In this document: piece after piece, positions 4,458 to 14,255 of the stretch | How the letters are laid out: every line of letters starts with the position of its first letter | Numbering within the stretch: position 1 is the stretch's first letter | DNA from: Brevundimonas sp. | GTDB lineage: Bacteria > Pseudomonadota > Alphaproteobacteria > Caulobacterales > Caulobacteraceae | Reading direction: 5' to 3' | Assembly (NCBI RefSeq): GCF_029946145.1 | Contig: NZ_JAQSDY010000012.1 | Coordinates: forward strand, 178,806-242,805 | Length of the DNA stretch: 64,000 nt | Made by a program: the position numbers and the translations under genes | Notes under the pieces: generated by a model | The model's database searches: none | The model's input: the letters and a program-made list of their open reading frames with translations, nothing else | Told to the model about the DNA's origin: nothing

Positions 4458-5666
4458 GTGAAGATCAACCGGTTCAATCTCAAATTCCGGACCCTGTTCT
4501 GGGTCGCCGCCGCGCTGGCGGTGGCGGTGCTGCTGGTCTTCGCCTTCCGGCCGCGGCCGGTCCTGGCGGACCTCGGCGAGATCAGCCGCGGCCCTCTCAC
4601 GGTCGCGGTTCGCGACGAGGCGCGGACCCGGGCCCGGAACGTCTATGTGGTGTCCGCGCCCGTCGCGGGCCGGTTGCTGCGGGTCGGCAACCGCGCGGGC
4701 GAACGGGTCGAGGCCGGGGCGGTGATCGCGATCATCCAGCCGGCGCCGGCGACCTTCGTGGACGAACGGTCCCGCCAGGAAATCCAGGCCGGGGTTCGTT
4801 CGGCCGAAGCCGCCCTCGCCCTCGCGCGCGCCGAGCTGGAAGGCGCCGAAGCCCGGCTGGCCCATGCCCGGATCGAGGCCGAACGGACCGAGACCCTGTT
4901 CGCCGTGGATGTCGCGTCGAGGAGCGCCCTGGACCGCGCCCGTCTCGACGTGCGCACCGCCGCCGCCGTTGTCGCCAACGCCCGCGCCGGCGTTGGCGTC
5001 CGGCAGGCGGCGCTCGAGGCGGCCCGCGTGCGTCTGGTCGAGCCAGCGGCCGCGAGTTCCGGGGGGCGCACGGTGACGATCCGGGCCCCCGTGGCCGGGC
5101 GGGTCCTGCGGGTGTTCCAGGAGAGCGAAAACGTGGTCGCCCAGGGCGCGCCGGTGATGGAGATCGGCGACCCTGGCGATCTCGAGGTGGTCGCTGAACT
5201 GCTCTCGAGCGATGCGGCGCGGATTTCCGTCGGGGCGCCGACCGTGATCGACGCCTGGGGGGACGGCCCGGCGATCCCGGGTCGGGTCCGGCAAGTCGAA
5301 CCCTATGGCTTCCTCAAGGTCTCGGCCCTCGGCGTCGAGGAACAGCGGGTCAATGTGATCATCGATCCGGTCGACCCTCCCGTGGCCTGGGCGTCGGTCG
5401 GCCATGGCTATCGGGTCGAGGTGGCGGTCACGATCTGGCGCGGGGAGGCGGCGGTCCGGGCGCCCGTAGCCGCCCTGTTCCGGCATCAGGGGAAGTGGGC
5501 GGTGTTCAAGGTCGAGGGTGGCCGCGCCCGTTTGCAGCGGGTCGAAATCGGCCAGAACAACGGGGAATTCGCGGAGGTTCGGTCCGGGCTCAAGCCGGGC
5601 GAGCGAGTGGTGCTCCATCCGGGGCAGTCGATCTCCGATGGCGGCCAGGTCCGGGCCCGGCCCTAG
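4458..5666 (+). CDS. Periplasmic adaptor (membrane fusion protein, HlyD/MacA family)
   Basis: N-terminal TM, VSAPVAGRLL and IRAPVAGRVL lipoyl half-motifs around an Ala-rich helical hairpin, C-terminal VEIGQ...GLKPGERVV. Confidence 0.9.
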   Translation: MKINRFNLKFRTLFWVAAALAVAVLLVFAFRPRPVLADLGEISRGPLTVAVRDEARTRARNVYVVSAPVAGRLLRVGNRAGERVEAGAVIAIIQPAPATFVDERSRQEIQAGVRSAEAALALARAELEGAEARLAHARIEAERTETLFAVDVASRSALDRARLDVRTAAAVVANARAGVGVRQAALEAARVRLVEPAAASSGGRTVTIRAPVAGRVLRVFQESENVVAQGAPVMEIGDPGDLEVVAELLSSDAARISVGAPTVIDAWGDGPAIPGRVRQVEPYGFLKVSALGVEEQRVNVIIDPVDPPVAWASVGHGYRVEVAVTIWRGEAAVRAPVAALFRHQGKWAVFKVEGGRARLQRVEIGQNNGEFAEVRSGLKPGERVVLHPGQSISDGGQVRARP

Positions 5667-5701
5667 AATCAGGGCGCGCGTCGGGAACGTGAGGACGGGG
5701 T

Positions 5702-5988
5702 GTGACCGCCAAGAAGAAGCTGTTCGACGCCGTGATCGCGCGGTGGGCGGGGGTGACCATCGCCTACCGGATGGAGGCGCTCGACAAGTATGACGCCGAA
5801 ACCAGGGGCAGCCCACGGTCGAGGGGGCCCTGCGCGCCTTCCTCGATACCGACCTCGACCTCTACAGCCAGGGCGGCGAGAACTGGAAGAATTACGGAGC
5901 GCTCGGCGCGCAGGTTTCAAACACCCCCTATGGCGCCGAGTTGTCTACGGTTCCCCTCCGCGCCTCACGACACCGTCGCGGAATCTGA
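5702..5988 (+). pseudogene. TetR/AcrR-family regulator remnant (no HTH, frameshift, 3' truncated)
   Basis: KKKLFDAVIARW...RMEALDKYDAET in one frame continues after the G-run at 5805-5808 in the -1 frame as QPTVEGALRAFLDTDLDLYSQGGENWKNYGALGAQVSNTPYGAEL. This resembles the middle of an alphaproteobacterial TetR subfamily (recalled similarity). Confidence 0.7.
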
Positions 5989-6065
5989 TCGTCGTCCGAC
6001 AGGGCGACGTCCCCGCGTCCGCACCCTCGGGGATGATCTGCTCGCCGGAGTGCTCCGCGAGCTGG

Positions 6066-6389
6066 TCAGTCCTGCGATGTAACGTCGTCCGAGTTGGCTT
6101 TTCGGGGAGACCCGGCATCGGGTGGGTTCGTGACCTCGACCAGGAGCGCCAGCAACCGCTCCACATCAACTCCGGAGATTTCGCGACCGTCACGCATCCG
6201 TTGATCGATCACGAGCGCGGCCCGGCTGATGTCCGGGAATCCGAATGAGCCCGCCGCTCCGGCGAGGCGATGCACGATCCCGCACACTGCGTCCGTATCG
6301 GCCTGGTCGCGAAGGCGCCGGAGTTCCCGAAGGTCATCCCGGCAGCGCTCCACGAAGAGCGACCTGAGCGCCGCAAGGGGGTCCGTCAC
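6066..6389 (-). CDS. Hpt (histidine phosphotransfer) domain protein
   Basis: VHRLAGAAGSFGF Hpt motif in a 107-aa helical protein; ATGA overlap with the upstream receiver. Confidence 0.88.
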   Translation of the reverse strand: MTDPLAALRSLFVERCRDDLRELRRLRDQADTDAVCGIVHRLAGAAGSFGFPDISRAALVIDQRMRDGREISGVDVERLLALLVEVTNPPDAGSPRKANSDDVTSQD

Positions 6390-6763
6390 GGGCAGCCGCT
6401 CCCCAACAGGCCCTTCACGCGGTCCGGCAGCGTCAAGGGGTCGAATGGCTTGATAATGACGCCGATGCCGCCGAGGGCGACGAGGCGGTTCAGTTCGTGA
6501 TCCTGGGTCTGGGCGGTCATGAAGATCACCGGGGTCTCGTCGTGGCCTTCCAGCCTCCGGATCCGGGTCAGGACGCCGGGTCCGTCGAGCACGGGCATCA
6601 TGACGTCCAGAAGGATTACGTCTGGCCTGAACCCGGATTCCAGCGCCGAGATCGCTTCGGCTCCAGACGCGGCCGAGCGCACGGTTCCGTGGCCGCCAAG
6701 GGAGAACGCCAGCTCGGTGAGGGCGCGGATGCCTTCGTCGTCATCGACGTGGAGGATCAGCAT
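6386..6763 (-). CDS. Single-domain response regulator (receiver only)
   Basis: HVDDD, ILLDVMMP (phospho-Asp), IFMTA, IIKPF. Confidence 0.93.
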   Translation of the reverse strand: MLILHVDDDEGIRALTELAFSLGGHGTVRSAASGAEAISALESGFRPDVILLDVMMPVLDGPGVLTRIRRLEGHDETPVIFMTAQTQDHELNRLVALGGIGVIIKPFDPLTLPDRVKGLLGSGCP

Positions 6764-8808
6764 GGCATGGCTCCTGCCGCCGTATCGCGCTTGAGAGGAA
6801 ACTCGAACCAGAATTCCGATCCCTGCCCGGGGGTGCTGTGGACGCCGATGGCGCCGCCCATCATCTCGACCAGCTGGCGCGATATGGCCAGACCCAGTCC
6901 GGTGCCGCCGAACCGGCGTGTGGTCGACTCGTCGGCCTGGACGAAGCGCTCAAAGAGCGTGGCCGCTACCTCCGGCGCGATCCCGATTCCGGTATCGGTC
7001 ACCGTCACCCGGACAAGGGAGCGGCCATCCGGGGCGGTCCTCGACCGCACGGAGACGCTCACGCCGCCGCGTTCCGTGAACTTGATGGCGTTGCTCATGA
7101 GATTCAGCAGGACCTGCCGCAACCGGGCGGCGTCGCCGATGAGAACGGCGGGCACATCCTCACCCACGTCCTCGGCGTAGGTGAGGCCCTTGTCCTCGAT
7201 CTGGCCGAGCACGATCTCGGCGGTCTCGCGGAACAGGGTGCGGATTGCGAACGGCTGCGCTGCGAGCACCATGGCGCCGGCCTCGAGCTTCGAATAATCC
7301 AGCACGTCGTTGATGACGTTGAGCAGGGCCTGTGCCGACACGCTGATCCGGTCGGCGCACTGCCGCTCGACCACGCCGAGACCTTTGCGCGCCTGAAGCA
7401 GTTTCGAGAAGCCGATGATGCTGGTCAGGGGAGTCCGGACCTCGTGGCTGATGTTGGCCAGGAACCGGGTCTTGGCTTCGGACGCCGCCTCGGCCTTGTC
7501 ACGGGCGTCGCGGAGCTCTTCCTCGAGCGTGTGCCGTTCGGACACATCGCGGATCACAGCGATCACCTCGGTGGGCCGACCCTCACTGTCCAGCACTGCC
7601 TGGAAGGTTGTTTCCACCCAGACGATGTGGCTGTCGCGATGCACGGCGCGGTGCTGGAGGACGCACCGGCGCTGGCCGCCCGCGATGCGGGCGAAGGCGT
7701 CGAGAAGCCCGGCCTGGTCGTCGGGATGAAGAAAGGCCTGGGCCGGACGTCCCTCCATCTCCTTGGGCGTGTAACCCAGCAACCCCCGGATAGCCGGCGA
7801 GATGTAGCGACTCGAGCCGTCCAGCTTCAAGCGCGTGACGACGTCGCCCATATGGTCCGCAAGCAGGCGGAACTGCGCCTCGCTGCGACGGACCCGCTCC
7901 TGGGCCCTGTGCCGGTCGGTCACGTCCTGCACCACGCCGAACAGGGCCTCGACGCGGCCCGATTTGTCCAGCTGGCGGCGCGCGCTGACCACCACCTGGC
8001 GCAGCTTGCCGTCGGGCCGGGTGATGGACGTCTGGAACTCGTCAGTCGCGTCCTGATCCATCGCACGGTCCAGGAAGGCATCCAGCCGCGCTCTCTGGTC
8101 ACCGTCGTAGGCGGAACGGACGATGTCCATGGGGACCGGCGTGCCGGGCTTCCGGGGGGGCAGGCCGAAAATCCGGTAGACCTCCGTCGACCAGGTGGTC
8201 TCGCCCTCCGCCGTACGCCGCCAGTGACCGACGTGGGAAACCGACTCTGCCAGTTCGAGGAGCCGCCGCTTCTCCTCGGCCTCCAGCCGCTCGGTGGTCA
8301 GCTCCAGTTGTTCGATGATCAGGTCGCCGAGTTCGCGCAGCAAGGCGCGCTCCGCCTCCGAGAATCGTCGCGGTTCGGTATCCACGATGCAGAGCGTGCC
8401 CAGGTTGTGGCCGGATGCGGTGGTCAGCAGCGCGCCCGCGTAGAATCGCACATGATCTGCGCCGGTGACGTGCGGATTCCGGGCGAAGAGCGGGTCTTTC
8501 GTCGCGTCCTCCACGACCATGACGCTGCCGCCGGGCAAGAGGAGGGCGCTACTGCAGAAGGCGTCGCCCCGTGAGGTCTCGCAGGCGTCGAACCCGTGCC
8601 GCGACTTGAACCATTGCCGCTCGGCGTCGATCAGCGAAATCAGCGCCGTCGGCGCGTTGAACAGGGTGGCGGCAAGGCGGGTGAGCCGGTCGAACCGCGG
8701 TTCGGGCGGTGTGTCGAGCACCCTCAGCGCGTACAGGGCATCGAGGCGCTCCCGTTCGTTGTCGGGCACGGCGGATTCGATACCCAACTGCACGGGATCC
8801 TTGCTCAT
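6757..8808 (-). CDS. Soluble sensor histidine kinase, GAF-PAS-PAS-HisKA-HATPase
   Basis: GAF (ERERLDAL...RFYAGA...GTLCIVD), two PAS/PAC, H-box FLANISHEVRTPL, N-box NLMSNAIKFT, G1 DTGIGI, G2 GGTGLGL. No TM segment and no fused receiver. Confidence 0.93.
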   Translation of the reverse strand: MSKDPVQLGIESAVPDNERERLDALYALRVLDTPPEPRFDRLTRLAATLFNAPTALISLIDAERQWFKSRHGFDACETSRGDAFCSSALLLPGGSVMVVEDATKDPLFARNPHVTGADHVRFYAGALLTTASGHNLGTLCIVDTEPRRFSEAERALLRELGDLIIEQLELTTERLEAEEKRRLLELAESVSHVGHWRRTAEGETTWSTEVYRIFGLPPRKPGTPVPMDIVRSAYDGDQRARLDAFLDRAMDQDATDEFQTSITRPDGKLRQVVVSARRQLDKSGRVEALFGVVQDVTDRHRAQERVRRSEAQFRLLADHMGDVVTRLKLDGSSRYISPAIRGLLGYTPKEMEGRPAQAFLHPDDQAGLLDAFARIAGGQRRCVLQHRAVHRDSHIVWVETTFQAVLDSEGRPTEVIAVIRDVSERHTLEEELRDARDKAEAASEAKTRFLANISHEVRTPLTSIIGFSKLLQARKGLGVVERQCADRISVSAQALLNVINDVLDYSKLEAGAMVLAAQPFAIRTLFRETAEIVLGQIEDKGLTYAEDVGEDVPAVLIGDAARLRQVLLNLMSNAIKFTERGGVSVSVRSRTAPDGRSLVRVTVTDTGIGIAPEVAATLFERFVQADESTTRRFGGTGLGLAISRQLVEMMGGAIGVHSTPGQGSEFWFEFPLKRDTAAGAMPC

Positions 8809-10253
8809 GGAACGCCGGCTCCCTGCCCAGCCACCGGCGCGCCGAAGCCTTTCCGCGTCATGGTTCCCCAGGACTGGCTGCGCCGGAGATATTGCCAGAC
8901 CCCGCGCAGCCGCCAGAGGTTGTTGAGCTGCCGGTAGCCGAAGTTTTCAAGGACCGCGACCAGGGTCAACAGCACAAGATCGCGGGCCCGCGGGAAGCGA
9001 CGCAGGCTGGATTCTTCCAGCGCCAGCGACCCGACAGAGATCACCACGCCAAAGGTGAAGGTCACGGCGGCGAAAGCCAGCAGATACTCGATCGACAGCA
9101 GGCCGGTCAGCCAGAACAGCGGGATCAGGAAATATCCCAGCAATTCGACAACAGGCCCCAGCACGTCGACGAGGAAGATATACCCGAACCCGACGACACC
9201 GACCCGCCCGTATTTCCGCTGGAACATCATGTCCCAGTGACGTTCGAAGGTCTCGAGCGAGCCACGATGCCAGCGGGCGCGCTGGCGACCCAGGACGCGG
9301 ACGTCCTCCGGCGCCTCGGTCCAGCATACCGGTTCGGGCACGAAGGCGACCCGATAGGGCAGGCCCTTGTCCCGCATCAGCCGGTGCAGTTTGACGACCA
9401 GCTCCATGTCCTCCCCGACCGTGCCCTGCGTGTAGCCCCCGGCCTCGATTACGCGGTTGCGCCGGAACAGGCCGAAGGCGCCCGATATGATGGTCAGGGT
9501 GTTGATACGGCTCCAGGCCAGGCGGGCCATCAGGAAGGCGCGCAGATATTCCACAGTCTGCAGAAGGGCCAGAAGGTTTCGCGGCGGCCGGATTTCCAGC
9601 ACGCGGCCGTGTTCGATGCGGCACCCGTTGGCGATGCGTACCGTGCCACCCACCGCCACCGTCCGTTCGGGGTCCTCCACGAAAGGTCTGACCGCTCGCA
9701 GCAATGCGTCTGGTTCGAGCAGGGAATCGGCATCCATGGAGCAGAAGATCGGCGCGCGCGAGATGTTGATGCCGGCATTGAGGGCGTCCGCCTTCCCGCC
9801 GTTCTCCTTGTCCACGATGATCAGTCGCGGCTGGTGTTTCGCGCCGTAGATCCCCCGGATCGGCTTGTGATCAATCGGCAGATCGTAATGGCGCTTGATG
9901 GGGCGGAGGCCAAAGCTGTCGATCAGGACCTGAAGGGTGTCGTCGCTGGATCCGTCATTGATGACGATCACCTCGAAGCTCGGGTACTGTAGTGACAGCA
10001 GCGAACGGACGCTTTCGGCGATCGTCAGGGCTTCATTGCAGGCGGGCGCCAGCAGGGCGATGGGCGGGGAGGCGTCGGCATATCGCCTCCACAGCAGGCC
10101 GCCCGACGGGGTCGGCGGAGTCTGGATCAGCGCCGCCGCCGCGAGACCTAATTGCACGAGATAGACGAGGTTCTGAAGCAGGCCGGTCACGATGACAAAG
10201 GTCGCGATGGACTGGGCGAATACCGTCAGCCAATGGGTGATCACCCCGCTCAT
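8805..10253 (-). CDS. Processive family-2 glycosyltransferase (PgaC/IcaA/cellulose-synthase-like)
   Basis: Start reassigned to ATG 10253 (ATGA overlap). N-terminal TM, INDGSSD, KENGGKADALNAG, DAD, TVGEDMEL, QRARW (QxxRW), C-terminal TMs. Confidence 0.92.
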   Translation of the reverse strand: MSGVITHWLTVFAQSIATFVIVTGLLQNLVYLVQLGLAAAALIQTPPTPSGGLLWRRYADASPPIALLAPACNEALTIAESVRSLLSLQYPSFEVIVINDGSSDDTLQVLIDSFGLRPIKRHYDLPIDHKPIRGIYGAKHQPRLIIVDKENGGKADALNAGINISRAPIFCSMDADSLLEPDALLRAVRPFVEDPERTVAVGGTVRIANGCRIEHGRVLEIRPPRNLLALLQTVEYLRAFLMARLAWSRINTLTIISGAFGLFRRNRVIEAGGYTQGTVGEDMELVVKLHRLMRDKGLPYRVAFVPEPVCWTEAPEDVRVLGRQRARWHRGSLETFERHWDMMFQRKYGRVGVVGFGYIFLVDVLGPVVELLGYFLIPLFWLTGLLSIEYLLAFAAVTFTFGVVISVGSLALEESSLRRFPRARDLVLLTLVAVLENFGYRQLNNLWRLRGVWQYLRRSQSWGTMTRKGFGAPVAGQGAGVP

Positions 10254-11311
10254 GCGGCCGTCATCGCCAGACCGCGTTCCGCCAGCGCCAGGGACGCTGC
10301 CCTGCGCGGCCGGTCGCCGGGCCCGGTCGCCGCCGCTTGCAGGCCCCGCACTCCGGTCGGCCCCAGGGCGGACAACGCCTCCCCGGCGCGGAACCGGACC
10401 CACCAGACGGGATCGGAGAGTTGAGTGATGAGCAGGGGCACGGCCGTCCTGAGCCCGATCCGTCCGGCTGCTTCGCAGGCGGCCGACCGCACCATCCAGA
10501 CGGGATCCTCCAGCGCCGCGAGAATTCGCCCCTCGGCGGCCGGATGGCCCATGGCGGCGAGACCTCGCACGGAGGCGATTCTCAGTTCGAAGTCGGGTGC
10601 GCCGGTCGTGATGCATAGGGGCCGAAGGGCGCGAAAGTCCCCGCTGGCCCCGAGCGCCTCGGCGAGGATCACCCGCGCTCGTGGTGGTGTGTCCGGGTCG
10701 CCGAAGGCGCGCAGAGCCGCCCTTGTATCGCCGTTCACAAGCCGCCCCATCAGGGGAAGGTAGAGCAGGGACTCCGGGCCCCGACTGCGATGGACATCCT
10801 GCAGGACCTGCGCCAGCGGAGGCGCGGCGTCGAGTTCAATCAGCGACCGCATGAGCGCCACCCGCAGGTTGCCGTTGCGCGTCTGATCAAGGGCGGCGCG
10901 CAAAGCCCTCACCGTTTCCGGCCCCGGGAAGATCGACAGGGCCTCCGCGGCCACCATGCGGCCTGCGATCCGCCCCTTGAACAGTCGTCGTCGCAATCGG
11001 TCGTCCAGCTGTATCGACCGAAGCGCGGTTATCAGCCGTTCCCGCTCCACGCCCCGCACCATGGCCAGCAATTCCAGAAGGCTCTCGCCCATCAGCCGCG
11101 CGCGATGATCCACGCCCCGCAACCGCCCCAACGCGTCTCCCGAACCATTCATGACATCAAGAAAGGCGTCGCAGGCCCTGTTCCGATCGCGCGCCCGCCG
11201 GGCATCCTTCTGCTCACGGAAAAGCCGGCCGATGACGAGGGCGGATATCCACGCGAGCGAGCCCGCGGCCAGCGAGATCGACGTCCACCACAGGAGCAGC
11301 AGGCCGCTCAT
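10250..11311 (-). CDS. Membrane-anchored HEAT-repeat protein
   Basis: N-terminal TM; repeats such as ELRIASVRGLAAMG, WMVRSAACEAAGRIG and WWVRFRAGEALSALG. Confidence 0.85.
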   Translation of the reverse strand: MSGLLLLWWTSISLAAGSLAWISALVIGRLFREQKDARRARDRNRACDAFLDVMNGSGDALGRLRGVDHRARLMGESLLELLAMVRGVERERLITALRSIQLDDRLRRRLFKGRIAGRMVAAEALSIFPGPETVRALRAALDQTRNGNLRVALMRSLIELDAAPPLAQVLQDVHRSRGPESLLYLPLMGRLVNGDTRAALRAFGDPDTPPRARVILAEALGASGDFRALRPLCITTGAPDFELRIASVRGLAAMGHPAAEGRILAALEDPVWMVRSAACEAAGRIGLRTAVPLLITQLSDPVWWVRFRAGEALSALGPTGVRGLQAAATGPGDRPRRAASLALAERGLAMTAA

Positions 11312-12375
11312 CAGAAACGAAGGCCGAGGCCGACAGAGGCTTCCTGGCGCTCATAGGCCCCGCGATCCTCGAATACGGCTCCGACGCGCAGCGTCAGCCG
11401 GTCGGTCAGACCAATATCGGCGCCGACGTTCCAGGCCGCCACCTGAACGGTGAATCCTTCCGAGCTTTCCGGCGCGTCTGCGTAGCCCAGCCGCAGGCCG
11501 ACCCGTTCGGACGCCTGCCAGCGCGATTGAAGGGCATAGCCGTGACGGAGATCGTCAGTCTCGTCGCGGACGACGATCCATCGGGCCGCCAGTTGCAGCC
11601 GGTCGGGCACGATCTCGACGAGAACCCCGGGCTGGATCGCGGTTACGGCGCCGGTCGGATATCGAGCCGCCGACGCGTCCAGCGTCGCCGACAGTCGATC
11701 CGTCAGGCGCGCCTGACCGCCCAGGCCCAGAACCAGCTCCGGCCGGTAGTCCGCGTCCGGCGCGCCGCCCAGGGCGAAGTAGACGGCGCCGCCATCCAAC
11801 CGCCGGTCAAGACGGAGCTCGCCATAGGTGTCGCGGTTGTCAAACCGTTCGGTCGCCTCGAGCGCAAGCGCGACGTTCCAGCGGTCTCCCAGGGCTCTCG
11901 ACACTGCAATGCGCGCCTCGGCCCAGTCCGGGAGTCCGCCTGACAACGCGCTGCGCGAGGCGGCGATGTCCAGGCGCCATCGAGGTCCCAGCTCGAGCGA
12001 TCGAACCAGCGCCGCCACCTCCGTGTCCGTGGGAGCCAGCCGCGAGGCCTCCGCCGATTCCCGGCGCGCGGTCGCCAGGTCGCCACGCCGCTGGGCGACC
12101 CGGGCCAGACCAACCCGGGCGTCCACATAGTCCGGCGCCCGCGAGATCACGTCGGCGAAGGCGGCCTCGGCTTCGTCGAGTCGGTCCAGCGCCATCAGGG
12201 CCAGGCCAAGGTTGAGCCTTGCGTCGACATCGTCCGGGCGAGCTGCCAGCACGAGCTGCAATTTCGCCACGGCGTCGGCCGCCCGGCCCGCCCGGCGGTC
12301 CGCTACGGCTGCGCGGTAGAGCGTCTGGGAATCGGCTTGTGCGAGAGCCTGGGCCTCAGGCGCGATCACGATCAT
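11311..12375 (-). CDS. TPR + YaiO-family outer-membrane beta-barrel protein
   Basis: GGAGG SD; TPR helices (PDDVDARLNLGLAL, PDYVDARVGLARV) followed by amphipathic beta strands; C-terminal GLGLRF beta-signal. Confidence 0.8.
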   Translation of the reverse strand: MIVIAPEAQALAQADSQTLYRAAVADRRAGRAADAVAKLQLVLAARPDDVDARLNLGLALMALDRLDEAEAAFADVISRAPDYVDARVGLARVAQRRGDLATARRESAEASRLAPTDTEVAALVRSLELGPRWRLDIAASRSALSGGLPDWAEARIAVSRALGDRWNVALALEATERFDNRDTYGELRLDRRLDGGAVYFALGGAPDADYRPELVLGLGGQARLTDRLSATLDASAARYPTGAVTAIQPGVLVEIVPDRLQLAARWIVVRDETDDLRHGYALQSRWQASERVGLRLGYADAPESSEGFTVQVAAWNVGADIGLTDRLTLRVGAVFEDRGAYERQEASVGLGLRF

Positions 12376-12769
12376 TCCGGTCCTCCTGTGGCGGGGAGGA
12401 TGCCGGAAGCAGAAGCCGCCGCACGCGCTGGCTCAGCTCGTCGGGGATGAAAGGCTTGACCAGATAGTCCGCGGCGCCGAGTTGCAGCGCTCCCACGATA
12501 TCCTGTTCACGCTTCAGCGCCGTAAGCATGATGACCGGCGCACTGGACAGGTTGCCGCTTTTCAGGCGGCGCAGGACCTCGAAGCCGTCCATGATCGGCA
12601 TCAGGGCGTCGAGGACAATGAGGTCGGGGTTCTGCTCGGCGATCGCGACGAGCGCCTGGGCGCCATCTTCGGCGACCAGAACATGGTGGCCGTCAGCCGA
12701 AAGCTTGTGGACCAGCAAGGACCGCAACAGTGGATCGTCGTCGGCGATCAGGATGCGGCTGGTAGTCAT
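12356..12769 (-). CDS. Single-domain response regulator (receiver only)
   Basis: ILIADDD, IVLDALMP, IMLTA, YLVKPF; no output domain. Confidence 0.93.
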   Translation of the reverse strand: MTTSRILIADDDPLLRSLLVHKLSADGHHVLVAEDGAQALVAIAEQNPDLIVLDALMPIMDGFEVLRRLKSGNLSSAPVIMLTALKREQDIVGALQLGAADYLVKPFIPDELSQRVRRLLLPASSPPQEDRNDRDRA

Positions 12770-12992
12770 GGAAGGTCAGAACTCCGACGTCTGCGCCCCC
12801 ATCCGCAGGATGCTCCCGCGGAGTGAATCAAACGCTACCGACCAAGGGGGCGCACGACGTGACAGCGGCATCTGAACGACCCTGCGTTCGGCGGGTTCCT
12901 GTTGGTCCAATGTCATGGGCATGGGGGCGTTGCCCGGCGCGTGGCGGTGCGGGCAGTCCAGCGCGGCCGTGACAGGCGCCCTGTCAATGAAT

Positions 12993-14255
12993 TCAGGGGC
13001 GAACCGCCCCCTGCGCGCGGACCAGGTACTTGTAGGTGGTCAGCTGGGCCGCGCCGACGGGACCCCGGGCGTGCAGGCGCCCGGTGGCGATCCCGATCTC
13101 GCCGCCGAACCCGAACTGGCCGCCATCCGCGAACTGGGTGGAGGCGTTATGCATGACGATGGCGCTGTCGACGCGGTCCAGGAATTCGGCGGCGGCGGCC
13201 GGATCCTCCGTCACGATGGCGTCGGTGTGACCCGAGCCGTGCCGGGCGATATGCGCCAGGGCCTCGGCCATTCCGTCCACCACCCGGATGGCCAGGATCG
13301 GCGCCAGATGTTCAGTGGTCCAGTCGGCTTCGACGGCGGGCGTCGCCTCCGGCAAGATCGCACACGTCCGGGCGTCGCCGCGCAGGACGCAGCCGGCCGC
13401 CAGCAGGTCGTCGGCCACGGGCCGCAAGAGCGCATCCGCCACCGAGGCGTCGACCAGCAGGGTCTCGGTCGCGCCGCAGACCGTGACCCGCCGCATCTTG
13501 GCGTTCAAAACGATCCTGCGAGCCTTTTCCGGATCGGCGGCGGTGTGAAGGTAGGTGTGGCAAAGGCCCTCCAGATGTCCAAGCACGGGAGCCCGGGCCT
13601 CACTCTGGACCCGCTGCACCAGGCTGCGTCCACCGCGCGGGACGATGAGGTCGATGGCGCCGTTCAGGCCGGTCAGGAGGGCGCCCACCGCAGCACGGTC
13701 GGGGGTGCTGACCAACTGGACCAGGTCGCCCGGCAGTCCTGCCTTGGTCAGTCCCTCCACGAGGGCGGCGTGGATAGCGATGGCGCTGGCCAGCGCGGCT
13801 GAGCCGGACCGGAGGATCAGGGCGTTGCCGGAGCGCACGCACAGGGCCGCGGCGTCGACGGTGACATTCGGCCGGCTCTCGTAGATGACCGCCAGCACGC
13901 CGATCGGCACCCGGACACGGGCGATGTCGAGACCGCTGGGCGGCGTCCAGCGCTCGTCCTCGACACCCACGGGATCGGTTTGGCCGGCGATCTCCCGAAG
14001 GCCGTCGGCCATCCCCGCGACGCGGTCTCGGGTCAGCGCCAGTCGATCGAGCATGGCGTCGGCCATGTCCCCCTGACGCGCACGGGCCACATCGTCCTCA
14101 TTGGCCGCGAGGATTTCGTCGGCGCCACGCTCCAGGGCGTCCGCCATGGCGTGGAGGGCGGCGGTGCGGGCAGCCGCAGGTGTCATGCGCACAGACTCGA
14201 AGGCGGCGCGGGCGCGGTCGCCCATCGCCTGCATCGCGCCCTCGATCATTGTCAT
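12993..14255 (-). CDS. proA: Glutamate-5-semialdehyde dehydrogenase
   Basis: [69 protein letters not shown]. Start ATG 14255 overlaps the proB stop. Confidence 0.96.

Follow-up and report, generated by a model that had tools for sequence, protein, structure and literature searches.

To our knowledge, the well-studied synthase-dependent polysaccharide machines, namely those for cellulose, alginate, Pel, poly-N-acetylglucosamine (PNAG) and the Nfr glycan, are all switched post-translationally by cyclic diguanylate (c-di-GMP). A 64,000-nucleotide (nt) stretch of a Brevundimonas sp. genome (NCBI RefSeq assembly GCF_029946145.1, contig NZ_JAQSDY010000012.1, positions 178,806 to 242,805 of the forward strand), hereafter termed the window, raises the question of whether such a machine might be switched by phosphorylation. 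Between positions 6066 and 12769 it carries seven open reading frames (ORFs), all on the minus strand, for a stand-alone receiver (REC1), a beta-barrel protein of the YaiO type with tetratricopeptide repeats (TPR), a HEAT-repeat protein with a transmembrane helix (TM-HEAT), a family 2 glycosyltransferase (GT2), a histidine kinase (HK), a second receiver (REC2) and a histidine phosphotransfer protein (Hpt). A first-pass annotation of the sequence had interpreted this operon as a minimal polymer synthesis and secretion system governed by its own phosphorelay. A conserved unit, a processive GT2 and a link to the relay remain of that interpretation, but the composition of the core and the role of the barrel need revision. 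What we propose instead is an uncharacterised synthase-type polysaccharide system with a core of REC1, TM-HEAT and GT2 that is switched by the relay, a reading for and against which we see about even chances. Public databases hold generic names for these proteins (“HEAT repeat domain-containing protein,” “glycosyltransferase family 2 protein” and “YaiO family outer membrane beta-barrel protein”), and full-text literature searches for YaiO, for HEAT together with synthase-dependent systems, for phosphorelays together with exopolysaccharides and for Brevundimonas exopolysaccharides returned no study of this system.

The conserved unit of receiver, HEAT protein and glycosyltransferase

The seven-gene arrangement is far beyond chance: dozens of species genomes and metagenome contigs share it. 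The expected co-occurrence of its genes was found in both directions of search. A HEAT-anchored scan of one genome per species, with an alignment of the HEAT protein as query, recovered 65 loci, 47 of which encode a full-length TM-HEAT protein. In the latter set, a GT2 gene lies directly downstream in 46 of 46 cases, a YaiO-type protein is encoded directly upstream in 44 of 44 and a same-strand receiver is found upstream in 38 of 41; a kinase and an Hpt protein occur within 9 kb at 22 and 19 of 25 loci, respectively. The hosts are mostly Brevundimonas species, but also other Caulobacterales, Sphingomonadales, Stellaceae, Microvirga, Rhodospirillaceae and Propionivibrio. In the opposite direction, metagenomes were scanned with a GT2 alignment and the best 80 of at least 540 confirmed relatives were analysed; neighbours were scored with hidden Markov models (HMMs) built from the alignments of this analysis, and loci with enough flanking sequence were counted. 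HEAT is encoded directly upstream in 55 of 58 of these loci and a high-scoring, same-strand REC1-type receiver upstream in 32 of 38.

The barrel, by comparison, is present in 15 of 38 GT2-anchored loci and missing from 23. The barrel-less loci show the order REC-HEAT-GT2, with the receiver retained in 19 and HEAT in 21 of the 23. In Gemmatimonadota, TM-HEAT is likewise paired with GT2 while a YaiO barrel is missing; the system was also found in Alphaproteobacteria and Betaproteobacteria. Because the receiver and HEAT are kept where the barrel is absent, the invariant unit consists of receiver, TM-HEAT and GT2, and the TPR-barrel is a lineage-specific, proteobacterial addition. The conserved unit postulated at first is thereby reduced to these three components, with the barrel as an optional one.

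All seven genes are under purifying selection, with ratios of nonsynonymous to synonymous substitution rates (dN/dS) between 0.07 and 0.58. By this measure, GT2 (0.07-0.10) and REC1 (0.08-0.21) are the most conserved members of the operon, followed by YaiO (0.22-0.33) and Hpt (0.26-0.58). The nearest genome locus, that of Brevundimonas sp. Root608 (L003), carries the same operon; most of its genes are 88-92% identical at the amino acid (aa) level, with lower values of 77% for YaiO and 66% for Hpt. Two metagenome-assembled genomes (MAGs) contain two paralogous REC-YaiO-HEAT-GT2 systems each (loci L007 and L013 in JAEYTA01; L025 and L037 in DASVTM01). A decayed copy adjoining ParB-like genes, with HEAT and GT2 split into several ORFs, was observed in a Caulobacteraceae MAG (L062, 7966-11572).

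The GT2 protein had been annotated as a processive enzyme, and it indeed carries the full signature of D, DxD, GED and QxxRW motifs (NDGSSD 99-104, DAD 174-176, GED 280-282 and QRARW 324-328); a hydropathy scan places two TM helices at the N-terminus and three or more at the C-terminus. Its closest characterised relative is PgaC of Escherichia coli (27% identity over 350 aa, E 1e-27), whose DGD, TED and QRLRW motifs align with DAD, GED and QRARW of the window protein. A C-terminal tail is specific to the family, with the pattern ENFGYRQ...WGxMxRxGF, and reads ENFGYRQ...WGTMTRKGF in the window. A sequence search of the PDB with GT2 alone returned short matches to the N-terminal Rossmann part, whereas a profile search retrieved chondroitin synthase, BcsA and hyaluronan synthase (E 1e-14 to 1e-19), the HMM similarity to BcsA being confined to the catalytic core. 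No close solved relative is thus available to give a clue to the sugar. As the operon is devoid of precursor or modifying enzymes, one of the common nucleotide sugars is the expected substrate.

The TM-HEAT protein possesses one N-terminal TM helix (residues about 4-28), followed by a basic stalk and a HEAT solenoid. In the AlphaFold2 model, with a predicted local distance difference test (pLDDT) score of 90, a long N-terminal helix (residues 2-54) comprises the TM segment and the stalk and precedes about nine helix pairs. According to the positive-inside rule, the basic stalk after the TM helix places the solenoid in the cytoplasm. Foldseek searches with this model matched only artificial alphaRep proteins and HEAT solenoids of the PP2A-A type and returned neither an enzyme-like fold nor a functional hint. 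Judging from its modelled fold, TM-HEAT looks like a scaffold rather than an enzyme, and it is proposed to be the obligate partner and adaptor of GT2. A profile HMM search with HEAT was swamped by long HEAT-repeat proteins; among its matches, some 50 orthologue clusters were single-stretch and 345-360 aa long, and a HEAT-GT2 fusion was not seen. Neither REC-HEAT nor HEAT-GT2 fusions were present in the loci examined.

The phosphorelay and its putative output

The operon contains the complete list of parts for a His-Asp-His-Asp relay, namely an H-box in the HisKA domain of the kinase, an acceptor Asp in each of the two receivers and a conserved His in the Hpt protein. The H-box of the kinase (SHEVRTP) is located at residues 454-460; a hydropathy scan revealed no TM helix in the protein, which also lacks a receiver domain and is read as cytoplasmic. 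The acceptor of REC2 is D54 in ILLDVMMP, and the phospho-site of Hpt is H40 in HRLAGAAG. REC1 exhibits D11/D12, D54, T83 and K105. Its phospho-acceptor residues are invariant, with acidic pocket, acceptor Asp, Thr and Lys all retained by the orthologues. The alpha4-beta5-alpha5 stretch of REC1 (ALKREQDIVGALQLGAADYLVKPFIPDEL), which is the usual output face of receivers, is nearly invariant among alphaproteobacterial orthologues. The C-terminal tail of REC1 is variable, and a Cle-like, c-di-GMP-binding tail was rejected for this reason.

The claim that a stand-alone receiver is wired to a phosphorelay gains its support from other lineages, where at least six loci (L049, L051, L056, L105, L126 and L137) encode Hpt-REC-REC1 or Hpt-REC fusions directly upstream of (YaiO-)HEAT-GT2. 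In an uncultured proteobacterium (L049) and in Propionivibrio (L051), a 377-aa Hpt-REC-REC protein precedes YaiO-HEAT-GT2, and its last domain is a REC1 orthologue (44-49% identity). The metagenome loci L105, L126 and L137 carry single Hpt-REC-REC1 ORFs just upstream of HEAT-GT2, and in Gemmatimonadales (L056) an Hpt-REC protein is encoded directly upstream of TM-HEAT-GT2. These fusions tie REC1 to a phosphorelay and lend indirect support to a phosphotransfer order that would run from HK via REC2 and Hpt to REC1, in which REC2 is proposed to be the intermediate at the position of Spo0F and REC1 the terminal phospho-acceptor and relay output. At L049 (234-2536) and L051 (179-2552), a further Hpt-REC protein of 390-399 aa stands in tandem with the 377-aa fusion before YaiO-HEAT-GT2. 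No kinase is visible on either of these two contigs, of which that of Propionivibrio belongs to a betaproteobacterium.

No DNA-binding output domain exists among the seven proteins of the operon, and the output is accordingly taken to be a protein-protein contact. The HEAT solenoid, the catalytic domain of GT2, REC1, HK, REC2 and Hpt are all predicted to lie in the cytoplasm. In the proposed mechanism, the GAF-PAS-PAS kinase would read a cytoplasmic signal, and phosphate would pass from His of HK to Asp of REC2, to His of Hpt and finally to Asp54 of REC1. Phosphorylated REC1 would then dock on the HEAT solenoid in the cytoplasm, on the conserved C-terminal GT2 tail, or on both. This docking would act as the switch for polymerising and translocating a homopolymer, with a common uridine diphosphate (UDP)-sugar as its building block. 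In Proteobacteria, the TPR and the 14-strand YaiO barrel would be added to this core as presumed periplasmic guide and outer-membrane pore. Control would presumably be post-translational. What the analysis establishes is the gene content and motifs, the predicted folds and topology, and the conservation and fusions; we infer the phosphotransfer order, the contact of REC1 with HEAT or GT2, the direction of control, the nature of the polymer and the export route.

A comparable division of labor is known from the KinA-Spo0F-Spo0B-Spo0A relay of Bacillus, which likewise employs a separate kinase, an intermediate receiver, a phosphotransfer protein and a terminal receiver. In Vibrio fischeri, the RscS/SypF relay governs production of the Syp polysaccharide, partly post-translationally. 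Unlike in these systems, the terminal receiver of the window has no output domain and is genetically linked to a HEAT-GT2 synthase; the RscS/SypF-controlled Syp system, moreover, is not a GT2-synthase system.

The sensor module is less constant than the core. In the window and its nearest clade, the GAF-PAS-PAS kinase, REC2 and Hpt are co-directional with the synthase genes. In another Brevundimonas clade, represented by L014, a convergent module consists of a CHASE3-PAS hybrid kinase, Hpt and a REC2 orthologue of 55% identity that adjoins Hpt, and in Microvirga (L043) a divergent GAF-PAS hybrid kinase is accompanied by a REC protein. The notion of an operon with its own HK, REC2 and Hpt therefore applies to this genome, but kinase type, orientation and presence of the module vary elsewhere.

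This variation in place and type is one argument for regarding the locus as two functionally separate, co-transcribed modules, with REC1 or the whole relay controlling, for example, motility, the cell cycle or the stress response and HEAT-GT2 being constitutive or regulated in transcription only. Single-domain receivers of Caulobacterales often act on distant targets, and a possible promoter of the extracytoplasmic function (ECF) type upstream of REC1 would also fit. The motif GGAAC-N16-CGTT, which we take to be the consensus of EcfG/ECF15 general-stress sigma promoters, occurs on the right strand within the 223-nt gap between proA and REC1; in the 64 kb as a whole it has two matches versus 1.57 expected and is not enriched. 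A sister clade (L006-L010, L013 and L024) shows a conserved GGAAAC-N16-GTTC about 85 nt upstream. The candidate EcfG-type promoter is a lead only, and scans for sigma-70 promoters and terminators were uninformative. Against two separate modules speak the REC1-type receivers that adjoin HEAT-GT2 across phyla, even at loci devoid of barrel and kinase (19 of the 23 barrel-less ones), the Hpt-REC-REC1 fusions immediately upstream of HEAT-GT2 and the gene overlaps of 1-20 nt in the window. We consider a separation of this kind unlikely, though it deserves somewhat more weight than the other alternatives.

Known synthase systems, c-di-GMP and the presumed export barrel

Neither the seven operon proteins nor ten flanking proteins contain PilZ, GGDEF, EAL, PgaD, polysaccharide deacetylase or glycoside hydrolase domains, so that the absence of such domains from the operon, as first annotated, also extends to its flanks. 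Rfam families, including c-di-GMP riboswitches, showed no match in region 5500-13500. The further claim that the receiver “replaces” c-di-GMP could not be upheld in this form, as the absence of known domains is not positive proof.

PgaABCD of E. coli shares several features with the window system. Both combine a processive membrane GT2 of the D/DxD/(T/G)ED/QxxRW type with a TPR and beta-barrel component and a small membrane partner of the synthase, which is PgaD in one case and TM-HEAT in the other. The locus might be a divergent PNAG (Pga-like) or otherwise classical synthase system with a cryptic c-di-GMP switch, in which the relay only tunes the output or acts on transcription via an unlinked regulator. 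The PgaC equivalog TIGR03937 is the best NCBIfam match of GT2, the fold of the TPR-barrel resembles PgaA, BcsC and PelB, and the c-di-GMP site of PgaC-PgaD likewise has no recognisable domain. However, the equivalog cutoffs are missed widely, with 135.7 bits versus 422 for TIGR03937 and 23 bits versus 367 for TIGR03939 (PgaA). PgaB and PgaD are missing from operon and flanks along with PilZ, GGDEF and EAL, and no riboswitch was found. The synthase has a HEAT solenoid of 353 aa as its partner, the barrel is 14- instead of 16-stranded and has no signal peptide here, and a phosphorelay is encoded where Pga relies on c-di-GMP. Neither the strict linkage of REC, HEAT and GT2 nor the fusion of Hpt to REC1 belongs to Pga loci, and a Pga-like machine appears improbable.

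The remaining comparisons are looser. NfrB-NfrA-YbcH, the N4 glycan receptor system of E. coli, shares the minimal layout of GT2 and TPR-barrel with a regulatory input within the locus, but BLASTP revealed no significant similarity (NfrB E 0.04, NfrA E 0.08) and no match to YbcH, and the c-di-GMP-binding MshEN domain of the NfrB type is missing here. The suggestion in the first-pass annotation that barrel and polymer could act as a phage receptor, as for NfrA/NfrB, found no support. The uncharacterised yaiO-(yaiX)-yaiP-yaiS cluster of E. coli also places a YaiO-family barrel next to a GT2 gene. Its YaiO, however, carries a signal peptide but lacks TPR, YaiP lies further from the window GT2 than PgaC does (E 8e-11), and the cluster includes a deacetylase and an acyltransferase but no HEAT, REC or Hpt protein. 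The Bcs and Alg systems resemble the proposed machine in that a GT2 synthase channel receives a cytoplasmic regulatory input on the enzyme, and BcsC is a structural match of the barrel; the regulator there is a PilZ domain that binds c-di-GMP, whereas neither BcsB nor Alg44 is found here. Xanthomonas xagABCD was set aside as a relative after comparison by description only, in which the literature gave no sign of HEAT or REC partners. Judged by its protein families, the window system would work like a synthase-dependent exopolysaccharide machine that belongs to neither the Pga nor the Nfr group and apparently lacks the c-di-GMP receptor of the class.

The barrel protein itself is a clear family member. 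It matches TIGR04390 with 80.4 bits (cutoff 32) over model positions 1-230 of 230, and Pfam PF19413 falls just below its cutoff (21.8 versus 23.9). The AlphaFold2 model (pLDDT 91) consists of seven TPR helices (residues 16-127) and a 14-stranded beta-barrel (133-353), whose best fold matches are OmpG (14 strands), followed by BcsC, PelBC and PgaA, and the protein ends in ...GLGLRF. It begins with MIVIAPEAQALAQADSQTLY, and no signal peptide was found at this N-terminus (start 12330-12375), nor did a hydropathy scan detect a hydrophobic segment or TM helix in the protein. An upstream start that would yield a signal peptide and a frameshifted fusion of REC1 and barrel were both considered and rejected: the ATG follows a strong AGGAGG at a distance of 6 nt, and the sequence upstream lacks hydrophobic character and contains an in-frame stop at 20 codons from the start. 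Close homologues without exception measure 353-358 aa and have an N-terminus of the same type, including those from independent NCBI and JGI gene calls.

The signal peptide is missing throughout the main Brevundimonas clade (L003-L024, L027, L029 and L031-L035). A classical signal peptide, for example MRTVLAMAALACLGTAEAAQA|QD, is found in basal Brevundimonas and other lineages (L025, L026, L028, L039-L043, L045, L049 and L051) and in most metagenome loci of the barrel class, which points to a loss in the ancestor of the main clade. The role of the TPR-barrel as an exit pore, assumed in the first-pass annotation, agrees with its fold but is not secured for this genome because of the missing signal peptide. 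A different kind of TPR protein, secreted and 449 aa long, is encoded beside the Hpt-REC, HEAT and GT2 genes of the Gemmatimonadales locus L056 (6774-8123); an hhalign comparison with the YaiO profile matched the TPR part alone, and the C-terminal 290 aa, which match nothing, may be a divergent export component.

One possible consequence is that the GT2 product is not secreted at all but is a periplasmic or membrane-anchored glycan or glycolipid, with the barrel being vestigial or acting in a non-pore role in this clade. Besides the missing signal peptide, the absence of the barrel from most GT2-anchored loci and the lack of periplasmic modifying enzymes among the operon proteins would be in line with this. 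Yet the signal-peptide-less barrel is still constrained, with the dN/dS values given above and an ...RF terminus that resembles a beta-signal, its distant orthologues do carry signal peptides, and GT2 resembles channel-forming synthases in its processive QxxRW motif and its several TM helices. We rate a non-secreted product as improbable.

The reading of the locus as a relay-switched synthase with a REC1-HEAT-GT2 core has to be weighed against several points. HEAT or GT2 may contain an unrecognised c-di-GMP site. Not all loci have an HK/REC2/Hpt module, and the kinase in it changes from clade to clade. On the basis of gene neighbourhood, post-translational control looks the same as an action of REC1 on some other target. 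At 27% identity and with the TIGR03937 cutoff far off, the likeness to PgaC probably does not identify the polymer, and the missing signal peptide of the barrel in this clade weakens the secretion half of the model.

In its most far-reaching form, the proposal would be that REC-HEAT-GT2 represents a widespread class of polysaccharide synthase that had escaped notice, in which a single-domain receiver phosphorylated by a dedicated Hpt relay gates GT2 directly via a membrane-anchored HEAT adaptor as a c-di-GMP-independent counterpart of PilZ/PgaD control. It would further hold that selection maintains the barrel in a whole Brevundimonas clade despite the loss of its signal peptide, implying an unknown targeting route or a new, non-pore role. 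This extended version is put forward tentatively and is judged less likely than not. If true, a second, phosphorylation-based way of gating polymer synthesis would exist beside c-di-GMP, and both a common “HEAT repeat domain-containing protein” and many of the orphan response regulators with a single domain would gain a function. Bacteria of soil, rhizosphere and water often carry the system, and the number of confirmed metagenome relatives, at least 540, suggests that it may be of importance to biofilms and surface biology in non-model organisms.

Gene arrangement, flanks and a neighbouring small reading frame

All seven ORFs were recovered as first annotated, on one strand and overlapping, and Pfam and NCBIfam confirmed every domain call of the seven proteins (Table 1). 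From REC1 to Hpt, successive genes overlap by 20, 1 (TGATG), 4 (ATGA), 4 (ATGA), 7 and 4 (GTGA) nt. The start of GT2 is the conserved ATG at 10253 in the ATGA overlap with the HEAT gene. Mechanical ORF prediction yields a 603-aa GT2 ORF instead (8805-10616, minus strand), whose additional 363 nt at the upstream end fall within the HEAT gene, so that automated gene callers could over-extend GT2.

Table 1. Genes of the operon and a candidate promoter element in the window.
Feature	Position	Strand	Description
REC1	12356-12769	-	stand-alone receiver, 137 aa; Response_reg E 3e-29
TPR+YaiO	11311-12375	-	TPR_19 (Pfam) and TIGR04390 OMP_YaiO_dom (NCBIfam)
TM-HEAT	10250-11311	-	353 aa; HEAT_2 E 1e-25
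GT2	8805-10253	-	482 aa; Glyco_tranf_2_3, Glycos_transf_2, Glyco_trans_2_3
HK	6757-8808	-	GAF+PAS+PAS+HisKA+HATPase_c
REC2	6386-6763	-	stand-alone receiver, 125 aa; Response_reg E 3e-22
Hpt	6066-6389	-	GTG start, 107 aa; Hpt domain E 1e-12
Candidate ECF (EcfG-type) promoter, GGAAC-N16-CGTT	12875-12899	-	106 nt upstream of REC1 start

The operon is flanked on one side by proBA, thrC, thrB-like and aspartokinase/homoserine dehydrogenase genes and on the opposite side by a MacB/HlyD efflux pair. A small ORF on the plus strand (5702-6082), which is convergent with Hpt and without a Pfam match, begins with MTAKKKLFDAVIARWAGVTIAYRMEALDKYDA and continues in another frame near position 5800 (...PTVEGALRAFLDTDLDLYSQGGENWKNYGALGAQV). 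Its orthologue at L033 (3036-3272) is contained in a single frame, and the small ORF of the window consequently looks frameshifted, which would make it either a pseudogene or the product of a sequencing error.

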